From Myxococcota bacterium (GTDB lineage Bacteria > Myxococcota_A > UBA796 > UBA2385), in the NCBI GenBank assembly GCA_044344255.1, contig JBIJDH010000009.1:96001-160000 (forward strand): a stretch of 64,000 bases of DNA, in the 5' to 3' direction. The notes beneath the pieces were generated by a model that worked only from the letters and a program-made list of their open reading frames with translations, was not told where the DNA came from and searched no databases. Both the position numbers and the translations under genes were made by a program. Below are positions 1 to 5,618 of this stretch, piece by piece. The stretch's first letter is position 1. Each line of letters starts with the position of its first letter.

Positions 1-610
1 CCTGCGCAACCTCGCACGCGAGGGGGCGATGGAGCTTGACCTCGACCAGACCATCGACCGCACCTGCCAAAACGCGGGTGAGATCGAGCTCGCGTACGAC
101 CGGGAGCGGCAGAACCGGGTGCACCTCGTGCTCGTGATGGACACGGGCGGCTCGATGAGCCCCCACACCCGCCTCGTCGAGCAGCTCTTCACCGCGGCCC
201 AAGAGATGAAGGGTTTCAAGACCTTTCAGGCGCTCTATTTTCACAACGCGCCCTATGGGTTCCTCTTCGAAGACTACGACACCTACAAGCGCCGGCCGAT
301 CGACGAGATCATGCGGGACTGGACCCCGCAGCACCGCCTGCTGTTCGTCGGCGACGCCTCGATGGCGCCCTATGAGCTGTTCACCCCCTTTGGCTTCGAC
401 CCCTGGCGCACGAACGGCGGCCACCTCTCCGGCCTCGACTGGCTCCAGTTCATGAGGCGGCGCTGCCCGGCCAGCGCCTGGGTCAACCCGGACCCCCAGC
501 GCTGGTGGGACCACCCCACCGTGCGCGCGATCGGCGGGGTCTTTCCGATGTTCCCCCTGACGATGGAGGGGCTCCGAGACGCCGTGCGCTCCCTCCGCGC
601 ACCCACCTGA
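1..610 (+). CDS. VWA domain protein, CoxE-like (5'-truncated by window edge)
   Basis: Frame open from position 2 (LRNLAREGAMELDLDQTI...). MIDAS-like VMDTGGSM, YFHN, FVGDASMAPYEL and WVNP motifs fit CoxE-like VWA proteins. Confidence 0.8.
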   Translation, partial: LRNLAREGAMELDLDQTIDRTCQNAGEIELAYDRERQNRVHLVLVMDTGGSMSPHTRLVEQLFTAAQEMKGFKTFQALYFHNAPYGFLFEDYDTYKRRPIDEIMRDWTPQHRLLFVGDASMAPYELFTPFGFDPWRTNGGHLSGLDWLQFMRRRCPASAWVNPDPQRWWDHPTVRAIGGVFPMFPLTMEGLRDAVRSLRAPT

Positions 611-1205: not shown

Positions 1206-1835
1206 TCAGAAGGTGTGCTCCGGCAGGGCCATGTTGGCGGCCTTCATCGCCCGAGCCACCGCGGTGACGAGGTTGAAGTCTCCGCAGTCGTCGGCCACAC
1301 GAGCGGCCTCTCGGAGCGCGGCCTCGGTGCGATCGGGGAGGCGGGCCAGGGTGAGGAGGGCGAGGATCCGCTCCCGATGGTCACCAGCGGCGATGGCACC
1401 GTCGAGCGCGAGCTCGGCCATCCGCTCGCCCTCCTCGAGCTCGCCCGCGTCGAGGCGGGCGTTGGCCCAGGCCACCGCGGTGTCCGGGGCGGCGGGCGGG
1501 CGGGCGACGGCGGCCTGCGCCATCGCCGCGGCCTGGAGCTGGCGAAGCGCGGCGAGCCCATCCGCGTCACCGGCGCTGCGAGCCGCCCGGAGGCCCTGCG
1601 TGAGGGCGGCCATCGCACCGGCGGCGTCGGCCTGATGCAGGCGAGCCTGCGCGACCCAGGCGTAGATGCGGGCCTCCAGCTTTGGACGGCCCTTCGCCGC
1701 GTCCAGCGCCGCAGGCGCCGCGGCGAGGGCGGCCCCGCTGTCGCCGCGTTGGAGGGCCAGGTACATCCCATACGCGAGCTGATCGGCGCTCGTCCCGGCG
1801 TCCGGCGGGCTGTCCGAGCTCGACATCTCAGCCAT
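1206..1835 (-). CDS. hypothetical alpha-helical/TPR-like protein
   Basis: Ala-rich helical-repeat pattern; ATG at 1835 overlaps the stop of the upstream ahcY-like gene. Confidence 0.6.
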   Translation of the reverse strand: MAEMSSSDSPPDAGTSADQLAYGMYLALQRGDSGAALAAAPAALDAAKGRPKLEARIYAWVAQARLHQADAAGAMAALTQGLRAARSAGDADGLAALRQLQAAAMAQAAVARPPAAPDTAVAWANARLDAGELEEGERMAELALDGAIAAGDHRERILALLTLARLPDRTEAALREAARVADDCGDFNLVTAVARAMKAANMALPEHTF

Positions 1836-2994
1836 GCCCCCGCCGGAGGGCCTGCAGGGCGAGCCCCGCCGCTTCTTGTTCGATCGCGAGCGGCACGATG
1901 TGCTCACCGGGGGCCGGAGTGGCGCGCGTGAGCCACTCGAGCGTCAACCCCAGGACCGCGAAGTGGAGCAGCACGGGCTCGGGCGAGCCCGAGTTCATCA
2001 CGATGTTGAGCGGGTGCCCATCGCTCAGCAAGACGAGGCGGGGGCCCTCCTCGAGCTTGTAGCCGACCACGTGATCCGAGATCTGGTCGACGCTGGTAGC
2101 CGCGGCCTTGATCGCCGGGACGTCGAGCTCATCACCGCCGTGCCCGGCGTTGATCAGGACCACGCCGTCCCGCGCCCCGCGGAGCGTGTTTGGGGTGACG
2201 ACCGAGCGTTGCCCCGTGCAGGTGACGATGATGCCGACCCGACCCACACACTCGGCGAGGCTGCTCGTGGGGTAGCCGTCGTAATGTGCGCAGAGGCTCT
2301 GAATGGCGTCGGTCTCGACGACCTCGACCTGCGCTCCCGCGGCGCGGGCATAGGCGCAGACCCCACGCCCCACCGGACCGTAGCCGATGACCCCGACCCG
2401 GCGGCCGCTCAGGTGCATGCCGGTGAGGGTCTGGACGGCGTGCCAGAGGCCCTCCCCGACGCCGTGCCGGTTCTCAATCGCCGGCTTTAGACGGCCATCA
2501 TTGATGTTGATCACGGGGAAGGGGGCGTCGACACCGGAGAGGGCGGTCATTCCCGACTTCGTGACCTCCACGGCGCCCAGCGTCCGGGCCGCCTGTTCCG
2601 GCCGATGCCGCAGGAGGGTGCCGATGAGGTCCGCGCCCACGTCCGCGACGAGCTCGGGCTCGTGATCGAGGACCTGGAGCAGGGAGTCCTCACGGCTGCC
2701 CGTGGTGTAGACGGGGAGCCCGTCGTCGCGGAGGAGATCGACCACCCCGTGATCGGTGGTGGCCTCGGAGGCCCCGCAGAGCACCCAGTCGCCGCCACCG
2801 AGCACGAGCTCCCGCACCAGGGCCGCCGTGAGCGTCGTGAGGTGCGCAGAGATCGCGATGGTGCGCCCTTCGAAGGGGCGAGTGGCAGCCCAGCGGTTCC
2901 CAAGCAGGGGAAGTATCGGAAAGAAGGCGTTTATCCTGGCGAGCTCCGCCGCCGCACGCGCAGAACGATTCTCGGGGCGGTGCTTCCTCTCCAT
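1828..2994 (-). CDS. ahcY: adenosylhomocysteinase (SAH hydrolase) family protein, divergent active site
   Basis: RPFEG-TI---HLT, FPVININD--LK---ENRHG-G, GYGPVGRG Rossmann motif, NAGH, LL-DG--LN; GGAGG upstream of ATG. Confidence 0.8.
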   Translation of the reverse strand: MERKHRPENRSARAAAELARINAFFPILPLLGNRWAATRPFEGRTIAISAHLTTLTAALVRELVLGGGDWVLCGASEATTDHGVVDLLRDDGLPVYTTGSREDSLLQVLDHEPELVADVGADLIGTLLRHRPEQAARTLGAVEVTKSGMTALSGVDAPFPVININDGRLKPAIENRHGVGEGLWHAVQTLTGMHLSGRRVGVIGYGPVGRGVCAYARAAGAQVEVVETDAIQSLCAHYDGYPTSSLAECVGRVGIIVTCTGQRSVVTPNTLRGARDGVVLINAGHGGDELDVPAIKAAATSVDQISDHVVGYKLEEGPRLVLLSDGHPLNIVMNSGSPEPVLLHFAVLGLTLEWLTRATPAPGEHIVPLAIEQEAAGLALQALRRGHG

Positions 2995-3121: not shown

Positions 3122-3811
3122 TCAGGCCGGAAAGACCCAGCCGTCAAGCCAATTCTGAAGGATCTTCTTTCCGTGATCGGTGGCGCTGACGGGGGCCTCG
3201 ATGCCCCGCGCGTGGAGGAGGTCGCGCATCGCGGCCTCGCTCATCTCGGGGTGGAATTGGACCGCCCGCAGGCGGCGCCCCCAGGCGAAGCTCTGCCAGG
3301 CCGTGTTCTCATTCCCGCCAAGGAGCACCGCCCCCTCGGGCGGCCGCACCAGGATGTCGCGGTGGGTGGACTGCACCCGCAGCGTGTCGGGAAGCCCCTC
3401 GAAGAGCGGGTCGGCCCGGCCCGCTTCGGTGAGCCCGACGCTGATGGTGCCGTACTCCCCGCCGCGCGGGTTCGCCTCCACCCTCCCCCCGAGGGCCTCT
3501 CCGACGAGCTGATGGCCGAAGCAGACGGCGAGCACGGGCACCCGTTCGGAGGCCCGCAGCGTCCAGGCGGCGAGGGCGCCCATCCAAGGGGCCTCGTCGC
3601 GCACCGACAGGGGAGAGCCGGTGAGCAGGATCCCGTCCCAGCCCTCCATCATCGGCAGCGTATCCTTGGAATAGGCCCTTACCACAGATGGGCGTGCGCC
3701 GGCTCCCTCAAGAAAGCGTACAAACCAACTGTCATAATCGCCGTGTGTGGCGATCACCGCTGGGTTGGTGGAGCCGGTCTGGACGACGAGGACGCGCGGT
3801 GCAGGGGGCAT
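3122..3811 (-). CDS. class I glutamine amidotransferase (GMP-synthase-like GATase)
   Basis: ILLTGS, nucleophile elbow AVCFGHQ, VQFHPE (Cys-His-Glu triad). Confidence 0.9.
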   Translation of the reverse strand: MPPAPRVLVVQTGSTNPAVIATHGDYDSWFVRFLEGAGARPSVVRAYSKDTLPMMEGWDGILLTGSPLSVRDEAPWMGALAAWTLRASERVPVLAVCFGHQLVGEALGGRVEANPRGGEYGTISVGLTEAGRADPLFEGLPDTLRVQSTHRDILVRPPEGAVLLGGNENTAWQSFAWGRRLRAVQFHPEMSEAAMRDLLHARGIEAPVSATDHGKKILQNWLDGWVFPA

Positions 3812-3837
3812 CTGCTCCCCTATCCTGACCGGGCGCC

Positions 3838-4725
3838 TCAGCCCTCGAAGCACTCACGGATGAGCTGCCGCACCACATGGGGCAGCTCCTGCCACACCGG
3901 CGCGCGGTACCGCCGGCCTCGTCCGGCCCGGGCCATCCGCTCGCAGGTGCGGACGCCCTGCGGCTCCTCGGCCCCCACCTGGACCACGTGGAGCAGCGGG
4001 TAACGAGCGGCCACCTTCACGGGGTCCCAGCCGACGTTGGCGATGCCGTCGGTCATGATGATGCCGGCTCGCTCCCGCCGCGAGGAGCGGTTGAGCTGTT
4101 CGAGGCCCATCAGCAGCCCGCCCTCGATGTTGGTGTAGCCCTGCGCGGGCACCCCGAGCACCCGCCGCACGAGCTCACGCACCGGCACCTCGGAGCCCAT
4201 CGGCACGAGCAGGTGAGCGACGGTGTCAAAGCTCACGGCCGCGAGGCGGTCGAGCTTGATGCGGAGGATGGCGGCGGCGAGGGCGGTGAGGGCGATCTTC
4301 TCGCCCGTCATGGACAGGGACATGTCGAGGATCACGACCACGTCAGCCTCTCGGGGCTCTCGCCGTCGAATGACGATGTCTTCGGGCCGCCAGGGCCTTG
4401 GCACCTCGACGGTGGAATCGACGTCGAGCTCCCCATCGGCGGGGTAGCCGTGCGCCACAGAGACCATGGGCCGCGCCGCGTGACGGAGCATCTCGCGGGC
4501 CCGATCGAGGACCGCGTCTACTGCCCGCTCCTCGACCTCTCTTCGGAGGGAGGAGGGCAGGACGCGCTTCAGCTTGTGGAGCTGGGTGGCGGCCTCCCAG
4601 CCGGTGGGGAGCTGCGCGAGCTGGAGATCGAGAGACGGAGTGGCCACATAGGGCTGAAAGGGGGACTCTCGATCGTGCTCAGGGTCCGAGCCCGCCTCTC
4701 CGAGGTCGAGCTGCGGCTTCGTCAC
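3838..4725 (-). CDS. VWA domain protein (possibly the C-terminal part of a frameshifted AAA-VWA fusion)
   Basis: Complete MIDAS: ILDMSLSM, GYTNI, MTDG. GTG start overlaps the upstream TGA. Confidence 0.85.
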   Translation of the reverse strand: MTKPQLDLGEAGSDPEHDRESPFQPYVATPSLDLQLAQLPTGWEAATQLHKLKRVLPSSLRREVEERAVDAVLDRAREMLRHAARPMVSVAHGYPADGELDVDSTVEVPRPWRPEDIVIRRREPREADVVVILDMSLSMTGEKIALTALAAAILRIKLDRLAAVSFDTVAHLLVPMGSEVPVRELVRRVLGVPAQGYTNIEGGLLMGLEQLNRSSRRERAGIIMTDGIANVGWDPVKVAARYPLLHVVQVGAEEPQGVRTCERMARAGRGRRYRAPVWQELPHVVRQLIRECFEG

Positions 4726-5618
4726 CGCGGTGGAGTTTTTTTTTGCAGGTCCTTCAGCACGAGCTCGAAGGGGGTCTCGCGGGCGTCCTGGAGCTCGATG
4801 CGGGTGGGGAGGGCCATGGCCGCGGCGGCGTCGAGGTCTCCACCGAGCTCCGTCGCGAGATCGGCGATGGCCACGGCCGCGCGCACGCTGGCGCCCCGGC
4901 GGATGCGCGGATCGGAGCGGGTGGCGCGCACCAGGGCCACTGCGGCGACGATGAGGTCACGCTCCGGCTCCCGCTGGGCCTCCTGGAGCACGATCACCTG
5001 CTCCTCCTCTGCGCTCTGGTAGCCGAGGCGCACCAGCTCGAAGCGGTCGAGCAGGGCCTCCGAGAGGTGGCCGGTGGCCACGAATTCAGCGGGGTTCTGC
5101 GTAGCGACCACGCCGAAGCCTTGGCGGGCCCGCACGAGGCCAAAGTGGGGGACATGCACGATCCCCTCGTCGAGGGCCGGCAACAGGACGTTTTGGACCC
5201 CCTCGGGCATCCGGTTGAGCTCATTGATGAAGAGGATGGCCCCCTCCCGCATCGCCGTGACCAGCGGACCGGCGACGAAGAGCTCGGGCAGGTACCCCTT
5301 CTCGAGGACGCCCGGCGGATCGAAGTGCCCGACCAGCTTGGCCTCGCTGTACCGCCCGTCTCCGTCGACCCGCACCCAGCCGCGGCCGATCCCCTCGGTG
5401 ACCGCGCGAGCCAGGGCCGTCTTGCCGACGCCGACGGGGCCCTCGAGCAAGACGTTGCGCCCCGTACGCAGCCCGGCCACGAGGGCCCTGAGCTCTGCGC
5501 GGCGCCCGACGATGCCATGGGCCAGCGCGAGGCTGTCGATGTCCAGGGGCGGGTGACGGCTCGGCCCGCCGAGTGAGCCGAGGGGAGCGCCGAGAGGGGA
5601 GCGGCTGTCGTGGTCCAT
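4722..5618 (-). CDS. MoxR family AAA+ ATPase
   Basis: Walker A GPVGVGKT, Walker B-like LFINELNR, VATQNP, ALLDRF, GASVRA. Confidence 0.9.
   Translation of the reverse strand: MDHDSRSPLGAPLGSLGGPSRHPPLDIDSLALAHGIVGRRAELRALVAGLRTGRNVLLEGPVGVGKTALARAVTEGIGRGWVRVDGDGRYSEAKLVGHFDPPGVLEKGYLPELFVAGPLVTAMREGAILFINELNRMPEGVQNVLLPALDEGIVHVPHFGLVRARQGFGVVATQNPAEFVATGHLSEALLDRFELVRLGYQSAEEEQVIVLQEAQREPERDLIVAAVALVRATRSDPRIRRGASVRAAVAIADLATELGGDLDAAAAMALPTRIELQDARETPFELVLKDLQKKTPPR
4736..4744 (-). promoter_or_regulatory. A9 slippery tract (candidate -1 frameshift / transcriptional slippage site)
   Basis: Nine consecutive A on the coding strand (CAA AAA AAA ACT) four codons before the MoxR stop; the -1 frame runs into the VWA ORF. 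Confidence 0.65.

Follow-up and report, generated by a model that had tools for sequence, protein, structure and literature searches.

A candidate programmed -1 frameshift joining a MoxR-type AAA+ ATPase to its VWA partner in a Myxococcota bacterium and its relatives

The window analysed here is a stretch of 64,000 nucleotides (nt) from a Myxococcota bacterium (assembly GCA_044344255.1, contig JBIJDH010000009.1, positions 96,001 to 160,000, forward strand), in which two adjoining open reading frames (ORFs) of the minus strand encode a MoxR-type AAA+ ATPase and a protein with a VWA domain. The ATPase ORF ends in CTG CAA AAA AAA ACT CCA CCG CGG TGA, as read from the sequence, and the VWA ORF lies in the -1 frame relative to it, with its annotated GTG overlapping the ATPase TGA as GTGA. 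A preliminary description of this DNA had proposed that the run of nine A's (A9) before the stop directs a programmed -1 frameshift that fuses the two proteins. The features of the junction, in positions of the window, are the following.

4722..5618, minus strand: zero-frame ATPase ORF, the short product, 298 amino acids (aa), 31.9 kDa, with an AAA_5-type match of 76.9 bits on PF07728 (cut-off 22 bits)
3838..4725, minus strand: VWA ORF, read in the -1 frame and comprising helices, the finger region and the VWA domain, the C-terminal half of the predicted 593-aa product
4736..4744, minus strand: A9 run, the putative recoding site, on the evidence of the sequence, genome-wide rarity, orthologous loci and contigs of other studies
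4737..4743, minus strand: zero-frame slippery heptamer A_AAA_AAA (X_XXY_YYZ) within the A9 run
4722..4724, minus strand: UGA stop of the short product, 11 nt past the A9 run
4750..4754, minus strand: Shine-Dalgarno (SD)-like AAGGA, 5 nt upstream of the A9 run, duplex energy -5.8 kcal/mol, not conserved in the long-run class
4713..4728, minus strand: possible hairpin of 5 base pairs (bp), 7 nt downstream of the A9 run, not above background
4603..4737, minus strand: linker in the -1 frame, predicted to be disordered, between the slip site and the first conserved helix (GWEAA)

A -1 shift after the second lysine would join 294 residues to 299, giving a fusion of 593 aa and 64.6 kDa with the junction QKK/NSTAVTKPQ, which reproduces exactly the product of about 593 aa reading QKK-NSTA-VTKPQ that had been predicted; the peptide expected from the shifted product is NSTAVTKPQLDLGEAGSDPEHDR. 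The claim that such a run is rare in a GC-rich genome where lysine is mostly AAG is borne out by the run and codon counts. The 8,177,060 bases of the genome (71% GC) hold just 2 A/T runs of 9, and the other one sits behind a terminator-like hairpin. AAA makes up 2,559 of 44,799 lysine codons (5.7%, in 5,179 coding-like ORFs) and AAA-AAA 14 of 1,946 Lys-Lys pairs, 2 of these 14 being the A9 site counted in two frames. None of the nine other MoxR-like genes in the same genome has a slippery 3' end. Three other in-frame A_AAA_AAA hits (C15, C18, C70) were rejected as recoding sites: the first looks like an ORF that is spurious or of terminator type, the second like a wrongly extended ORF and the third like a gene lacking any recognisable -1 partner.

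With regard to an assembly error in the length of the run, contigs from two other studies (X4 and X11) show the same run and align across the junction without a gap. Elsewhere X11 has 5 differing bases; X4 is near-identical and possibly the source of the assembly. No contig of X3 carries an indel, and no single contig of it spans the whole stretch. From the metatranscriptome X21 no contig fell on this DNA, which says nothing either way on expression, and the viral contigs searched held no relative of the locus.

The junction is conserved in relatives. Among 61 related genomes, 35 carry a strong VWA orthologue and 30 loci were returned, the 30th cut by a contig end. In all 29 family- and order-level loci holding both genes, the VWA ORF is at -1 and an A7-A10 run lies 1-50 nt before the ATPase stop, which is what the proposed alignment of orthologous junctions was meant to find. 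A scan of species genomes found 523 relatives, and among the best 80, which were kept, 71 are at -1, 4 are fused, 2 truncated and 3 otherwise arranged. An even sample of the phylum gave matches (E <= 1e-45) in 24 of 301 genomes, every one of them from the same class and showing A_AAA_AAN in the -1 layout; these loci overlap the earlier sets and include the locus genome.

Pooling of loci L001-L273, without 24 outgroup or other-ATPase fetches and with duplicates removed, left 181 distinct loci. Of these, 121 have the VWA at -1 and 40 count as fused; the rest are 7 in frame 0, 1 at +1, 2 "far", 2 with the VWA upstream and 8 truncated. A zero-frame X_XXA_AAN heptamer stands at most 75 nt from the stop in 120 of the 121 distinct -1 pairs, as A_AAA_AAN in 88, as G_GGA_AAA in 18 (an actinobacterial sister clade) and as C_CCA_AAA in 14 (Thermoleophilia and relatives). 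In the 121st pair, L146, the ATPase frame is broken and A9 is still present. L146 is one of six apparent exceptions (L086, L109, L139, L140, L146 and L147) in which the motif is retained and the frame is broken a second time at another place, which is consistent with assembly indels. In L040, L045 and L076 the run comes directly after a -1-frame stop, and in L012, L078, L093 and L105 a zero-frame stop stands 1 nt past it, which pins the frame transition to the run. Elsewhere in the relatives' genes, AAA is used in 142 of 959 lysine codons. The relatives are labelled Myxococcota/Deltaproteobacteria, Actinomycetota, Spirochaetota, Bdellovibrionota and archaea, and no cultured host of the core family was found among plasmid records (best match 40% identity, in the sister clade). 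The genomes are kin, and the locus counts therefore overstate independence; on the sequences compared, what kinship leaves unexplained is that X changes from A to C to G between proteins about 45-60% identical.

The explanation that we favour, with a probability of roughly 0.7, is that of one recoded gene, read from these sequences, in which the long product arises by -1 slippage that is at least partly ribosomal. That both products arise by some programmed -1 event, whether on the ribosome or on the RNA polymerase, is very probable on the same grounds. Most ribosomes would stay in the zero frame and stop at the UGA, giving the 298-aa MoxR-type AAA+ ATPase. A fraction would slip back one base on A_AAA_AAA, where two tRNA-Lys would re-pair, and would then read through a flexible linker into the VWA domain, yielding the 593-aa ATPase-VWA fusion. 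In the clade of the locus, the long A9/A10 run would stand in for the 3' hairpin used by short-motif relatives, and RNA-polymerase slippage, which by addition of one A leads to the identical protein, may add to the fusion yield. The minority of shifted ribosomes would supply about one tethered VWA per ring. We infer that slippage happens in vivo and is at least partly ribosomal at the locus, and the stoichiometry of the two products would presumably be its purpose. The idea that a MoxR-type locus uses a frameshift of the chlD kind is supported by the conserved A-run and -1 phase and by the fused orthologues described below.

Classed by motif, 99 distinct loci comprise 33 with A7, 1 with A8, 38 with A9, 13 with A10 and 14 with C_CCA_AAA. 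Within the first 73 loci, all 23 A7 runs are in one phase (NNA AAA AAA) and longer runs occur in all three. A 3' stem, defined as a Watson-Crick stem of at least 6 bp starting 3-9 nt after the heptamer (controls 10-16%), is present in 28 of 33 A7 loci and 11 of 14 C_CCA_AAA loci, that is 39 of 47 short-motif loci, and in 8 of 18 G_GGA_AAA loci. The stems differ in sequence, and in a MAFFT alignment of seven Thermoleophilia junctions they did not align; their commonest spacer is 6 nt, modal in C_CCA_AAA, and stimulators of -1 shifts are placed 5-8 nt downstream in PMC4066793, which also lists C_CC.A_AA.A and A_AA.A_AA.A as shift-prone in E. coli. An upstream SD duplex reaching -5 kcal/mol is found in 30 of the 47 short-motif loci and in 27% of controls, a comparison confounded by Leu-Asp/Glu codons. 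Efficient polymerase slippage is linked to 9 A's (PMC5009743), and the four A's of C_CCA_AAA and G_GGA_AAA are far under this number, which points to ribosomal tandem slippage in the family; this is how the family mechanism is best read from its motifs.

Several points weigh against one recoded gene with partly ribosomal slippage, above all at the locus itself. The locus and all its family-level relatives belong to the long-run class (A9/A10), and a 3' stem is found in 4 of 52 runs of 8-10 A's and absent from 48, so that the stimulator is not above background in the clade and the ribosomal mechanism is carried over from the relatives. The hairpin GCGGU-GACGAA-GCCGC of the preliminary description does lie within the minimum-energy fold, but does not exceed chance: against shuffled controls z is -0.29 to -1.07 in windows of 36-51 nt and about 0 on longer ones, one 45-nt window reached -2.1, and the longest Watson-Crick stem at the locus, 4 bp, is matched or beaten at 83% of control positions. 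Likewise, the SD-like AAGGA is present 5 nt upstream of the run (AGGA at 7 nt, the spacing of an internal SD being 6-17 nt) but is unsupported as a conserved stimulator at the locus or in its clade, an upstream duplex of -5 kcal/mol or lower occurring in 14 of 51 A9/A10 loci versus 27% of controls. The motif class switches at least 9 times on the tree, and after phylogenetic correction the trade-off between run length and hairpin is not significant (5 independent pairs on well-supported branches, p 0.25; on average 2.7 concordant and 0.0 discordant). One true exception to the -1 phase exists, L107, with A10 and the VWA in the +1 frame; here either one A must be lost or the frame shifted by +1, unless the assembly itself has slipped. 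The GTGA overlap at the locus makes some coupled re-initiation possible. The 26 archaeal loci hold the fusion only, each genome giving one match (E <= 1e-40) except for one that has an additional fragment at a contig end, and their 26 linkers share no common slippery motif; the short subunit may thus not be essential. Finally, chelatase cassettes with A7, A9 and A11 shifted 10, 40 and 63% in E. coli (PMC3711429), and at the 40-63% of A9-A11 the run might give more fusion than a 5:1 ring needs.

Given that neither hairpin nor SD is above background at the locus, RNA-polymerase slippage may contribute, and the hairpin-free A9 may work by ribosomal slippage, polymerase slippage or both; a ribosomal -1 slip and a transcript with one extra A yield the identical protein (QKKNSTAV). 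It is, however, unlikely, if still worth serious attention, that the same two proteins are made essentially only by polymerase slippage of the Thermus dnaX type, with transcripts carrying one more A encoding the fusion. The nine A's have the length linked to efficient slippage (PMC5009743), run lengths are bimodal with a single A8, the long runs stand in all three phases with neither hairpin nor SD, all family-level relatives have A9 or A10, and L107 needs the opposite net shift. Yet the zero-frame heptamer is kept inside every long run too, 51 of 52 A9/A10 loci keep the -1 arrangement though polymerase slippage could go in either direction, and the repeated switches of the relatives between long and short motifs include classes that fit ribosomal slippage.

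The start of the VWA half bears on a second possibility, that of two separate, translationally coupled genes in which the Lys-Lys tail would be a feature of the protein or a relic. The locus does have the GTGA overlap, databases call separate VWA proteins of 224-305 aa, and separate AAA and VWA genes are the norm in MoxR systems (PMC9976466). Nevertheless, the overlap occurs in 4 of 73 distinct -1 loci, so the annotated GTG is not conserved, and, as had been claimed, it has no SD (duplex 0 kcal/mol). The 73 include 14 with no ATG, GTG or TTG anywhere from the slip site up to the first conserved helix, which lies 42-63 codons from that site across relatives, and a -1-frame motif, PTL(N/D)L(S/T)xxAT, is kept upstream of any start in several lineages. 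In the sequences compared, the VWA half has no conserved start of its own. Coupling would require no fixed -1 phase and no heptamer that stays X_XXA_AAA while X varies, and Lys-Lys could be written AAG AAG, the norm in the genome. This makes coupling quite improbable as the sole explanation, and a recoded gene remains the reading that we follow.

Fused counterparts, the existence of which had been put forward as a check, were found. Fusions in frame, about 600 aa long and identical in domain order, occur in the Thermoplasmata relatives (26 loci), in actinobacteria and among database proteins, and the VWA half aligns over residues 42-295 with 35% identity. The closest fusion, P0121, was rejected as an independent one, being a one-A-longer form of the split gene, as is P0289; the independent fusions are therefore the archaeal and actinobacterial ones. 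Two loci, L179 (5527-8286, minus strand) and L221, carry an ATPase gene of its own ahead of a second gene that encodes ATPase and VWA in frame, as in chlI + chlD, and no slippery motif was found on the gene's strand in L179. In L180 an in-frame fusion stands in tandem with a C_CCA_AAA pair.

One species-level cluster contains split (P0286, P0287, P0288) and one-A-longer fused forms (P0121, P0289), and the junction of L092 is in frame over A11; the in-frame L092, P0121 and P0289 may each be an allele, an assembly slip or a reverse slippage design. Together with L107, one A off, they are in keeping with phase variation, in which replication slippage toggles between 9 and 10 A's and subpopulations make either the short ATPase or the fusion. 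We regard this as quite improbable, since nearly all genomes are in the split state, the contigs of other studies show no run-length variant (though contigs drop rare variants), and motifs of four A's followed by a hairpin do not qualify as contingency tracts. We can practically dismiss an artefact, whether from misassembly or from a recent mutation of a fused gene, and likewise an antisense terminator with the run as its U-tract. Homopolymers are error-prone, and a hairpin with T9 lies on the plus strand (window 4710-4744, 2 overlapping terminator-like sites vs 0.6 expected), but other studies' contigs show the same run, the frame break is found again in other phyla, no plus-strand gene was identified as a user and the genes flanking on that side are on the minus strand, C_CCA_AAA and G_GGA_AAA give no U-tract, and a 6-nt spacer is not terminator geometry.

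The two proteins fit a MoxR-type pair, as the preliminary description had claimed. By established AAA+ nomenclature, the ATPase carries a Walker A (GPVGVGKT, residues 60-67), a sensor (ATQN, 172), DRF (191) and GASVRA (242). Further protein features of the locus are listed here.

5220-5231, minus strand: Walker B variant FINE, ATPase residues 130-133, with Asn in place of the usual Asp
4312..4326, minus strand: MIDAS DxSxS (DMSLS, by the established MIDAS definition), VWA residues 134-138
4411..4437, minus strand: DGELDVDST motif, in a predicted hairpin region ahead of the VWA core, a candidate pore-inserting finger, after the finger concept of the NorQ/NorD work (PMC9976466)

Asn-Glu is found at the Walker B in 21 of 21 aligned members, so that the canonical hhhhDE is absent from them. 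The ATPase scores above the PF07728 cut-off and below those of the chelatase models (PF01078, 19.8 bits for 20.3; TIGR02442, 31.9 for 779.45; TIGR02031, 29.9 for 499.55) and of named MoxR subfamilies (TIGR02640, GvpN, 88.1 bits for 266.8; NF047784, MadB, 62 for 475). The VWA ORF is above the cut-off for PF13519, PF05762 and PF00092, and its MIDAS is intact, with the T and D ligands in YTNI (VWA 197-200) and TDG (VWA 225-227). The predicted model of the 592-aa relative P0121 (mean predicted local distance difference test score, pLDDT, 87.6; predicted template-modelling score, pTM, 0.60) has the order ATPase, disordered linker (pLDDT < 50 at 298-326), helices, hairpin region and VWA core. Its best solved matches are NorQ and CbbQ (9qh9_C, Z 25.1; 6l1q_A, Z 24.9; root-mean-square deviation 2.5 over about 252 aligned residues), and no chelatase chain is among the fold matches listed for it, which by itself excludes nothing. 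In the FastTree tree the clade is separate from GvpN and MRP-type rows; a search with TIGR02442 at E <= 1e-20 gave no match in five genomes, hence the tree has no ChlD row. By fold and partner the ATPase belongs to the MoxR class and to no named subfamily.

In the NorQ system, a hexamer binds one NorD and the VWA finger of NorD enters the pore (PMC9976466). By analogy with NorD on NorQ6, the two products would probably, though by no means surely, co-assemble as a hexamer with about one tethered VWA plugging the pore and gripping the client via the MIDAS. No client gene is conserved across phyla in the neighbourhoods compared, in which the neighbours vary by lineage. Within the order, 96 regions, some genomes being included more than once, contain genes for a thiamine-pyrophosphate enzyme (18), a Bax-inhibitor-like protein (22), an adenosylhomocysteinase-like protein (15) and a glutamine amidotransferase (9). 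In the window, an adenosylhomocysteinase-like gene (1828-2994, minus strand, 388 aa, below NCBIfam cut-offs) and a class I glutamine amidotransferase gene (3122-3853, minus strand) lie downstream of the recoded gene, and both recur beside it in part of the order. At positions 29-610 (plus strand) lies the C-terminal portion of a further CoxE-type VWA protein; an AAA_5 match is found shortly before the window begins (G000:C64:94728-95159). In L100, L101, L104 and L108, the recoded gene directly follows the genes for the alpha and beta (B12-binding) subunits of lysine 5,6-aminomutase, with a beta-keto acid cleavage enzyme gene nearby, and this aminomutase is there a candidate client of a remodelling or reactivating ATPase.

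Some relatives may reach the same products by other routes. In L214 (4895-4897) and L215 (3895-3897), both on Rhodococcus plasmids, and in L220, three actinobacterial loci of a sister clade, the VWA is in frame right behind the UGA, in the context CCN GGW TGA AGA GC, and the residues after the UGA (RAV.ADSP...PLRR.PK.L) resemble the linker of the fused P0229 and P0264. P0248 and P0271 likewise end in EPG, and the two plasmid loci adjoin mycofactocin-coupled SDR genes. The UGA of these three loci is a candidate for programmed stop readthrough, a lead taken from their sequences. Three further loci (L191, 3308-3316; L193, 5607-5615; L192, 487-495) have GAT TTT TTT CG at the end of the ATPase domain of in-frame fusions of about 710 aa, and a -1-frame stop follows within about 20 codons of T_TTT_TTT; L191 and L193 are flanked by a CDC48-like gene on one side and an EAP30/Vps36 gene on the other. 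A reverse design, with a -1 shift on U_UUU_UUU making the short form, is possible in these three, again as a lead. A broader and more speculative proposal, which we hold only tentatively, is that an unnamed bacterial and archaeal remodelling family must make both a short ATPase and a long ATPase-VWA, swapping repeatedly between five routes (ribosomal slippage on three heptamers with hairpin, hairpin-free A9/A10 with polymerase slippage, UGA readthrough, reverse U-run shift and duplication), to form a midasin-like ring with one tethered MIDAS whose dosage would be set by recoding efficiency.

To our knowledge, programmed frameshifts in chromosomal, non-mobile prokaryotic genes are few, namely those of prfB, dnaX, copA, chlD and csoS2. 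The production of ATPase and ATPase-VWA from one gene would thus not be peculiar to chelatases, and a further family is added across several phyla; if true, the explanation predicts a hetero-hexamer with a tethered VWA. Annotation pipelines split such genes and choose the start of the VWA half arbitrarily. The family also lends itself as a natural series to the question of when an A-run acts via the ribosome or via RNA polymerase, given that close relatives differ in run length (7 versus 9-10, with 8 almost absent) and hairpin, so that matched reporter pairs are available from nature. No paper on recoding of MoxR or AAA+/VWA genes was found in the literature search, which left out subscription papers and bioRxiv supplements; GeneTack and the Chelatase DB might list members. 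"MoxR" is absent from the main text and supplementary PDF of PMC3711429 and from the part of PMC5009743 that was available, and PMC7911831 concerns a phage tail chaperone frameshift.

Compared with known recoding sites, the locus shares with E. coli dnaX and IS3/IS911 an X_XXA_AAN heptamer and a short and a long product, and the short-motif relatives also share a stem 5-8 nt downstream (PMC4066793). It differs in that the long product would be the shifted one, opposite to E. coli dnaX, and in that it has no significant stem and the A-site codon is AAA, not the more slippery AAG (PMC4066793). Thermus thermophilus dnaX has likewise 9 A's in a GC-rich genome and no other evident stimulator, but there the long product is in frame, whereas the locus needs a shift for it (PMC5009743, PMC3711429), and close relatives of the locus use motifs too short for polymerase slippage.

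With NorQ/NorD and CbbQ/CbbO the locus shares the ATPase fold (Z 25), a VWA partner with an intact MIDAS and a candidate finger region, and, by analogy, a hexamer with one VWA would be the expected assembly (PMC9976466). In those systems, however, the VWA protein is a separate gene with its own N-terminal domain, whereas here it would be recoded and tethered to the ATPase (PMC9976466). The Walker B of the locus, moreover, is INE and not hDE.

Midasin (Rea1) carries six AAA domains and one MIDAS domain in one chain. The likeness lies in a ring with a single VWA/MIDAS covalently tethered on a flexible linker, and midasin is the top PDB sequence match. Kinship was rejected, given that the high scores are sums over several weak domains (16-75 bits for single domains) and that the proteins branch apart in the tree; midasin is an architectural analogy only.

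The closest parallel is the frameshifted chlD, in which AAA+, linker and VWA are split by a -1 shift on A_AAA_AAN that gives a short and a long product (PMC3711429). Fused and duplicated (chlI + chlD) counterparts exist in both cases, one tested chelatase cassette, A_AAA_AAA_GCC_TGA with GC-rich 3' sequence and a 10% shift, has the layout of the short class (PMC3711429), and the 298 and 593 aa fit the ranges of the small (250-500 aa) and medium (500-800 aa) products (PMC9227772). The differences are that the locus ATPase is NorQ/CbbQ-like and under the chelatase cut-offs, with natural fusions reaching at most 66 bits on TIGR02442, and that the family heptamer occurs also as C_CCA_AAA and G_GGA_AAA. 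The large subunit CobN/ChlH (PF02514) was not found in the locus genome (95% complete) and occurs in 4 of 61 relatives and in 2 of the 35 genomes with a strong orthologue; frameshifted chlD without a large subunit has also been reported (PMC9227772). On the family-model scores and the distribution of CobN/ChlH, a chelatase role was rejected. The locus would work like a frameshifted chlD but by family models is not chlD.

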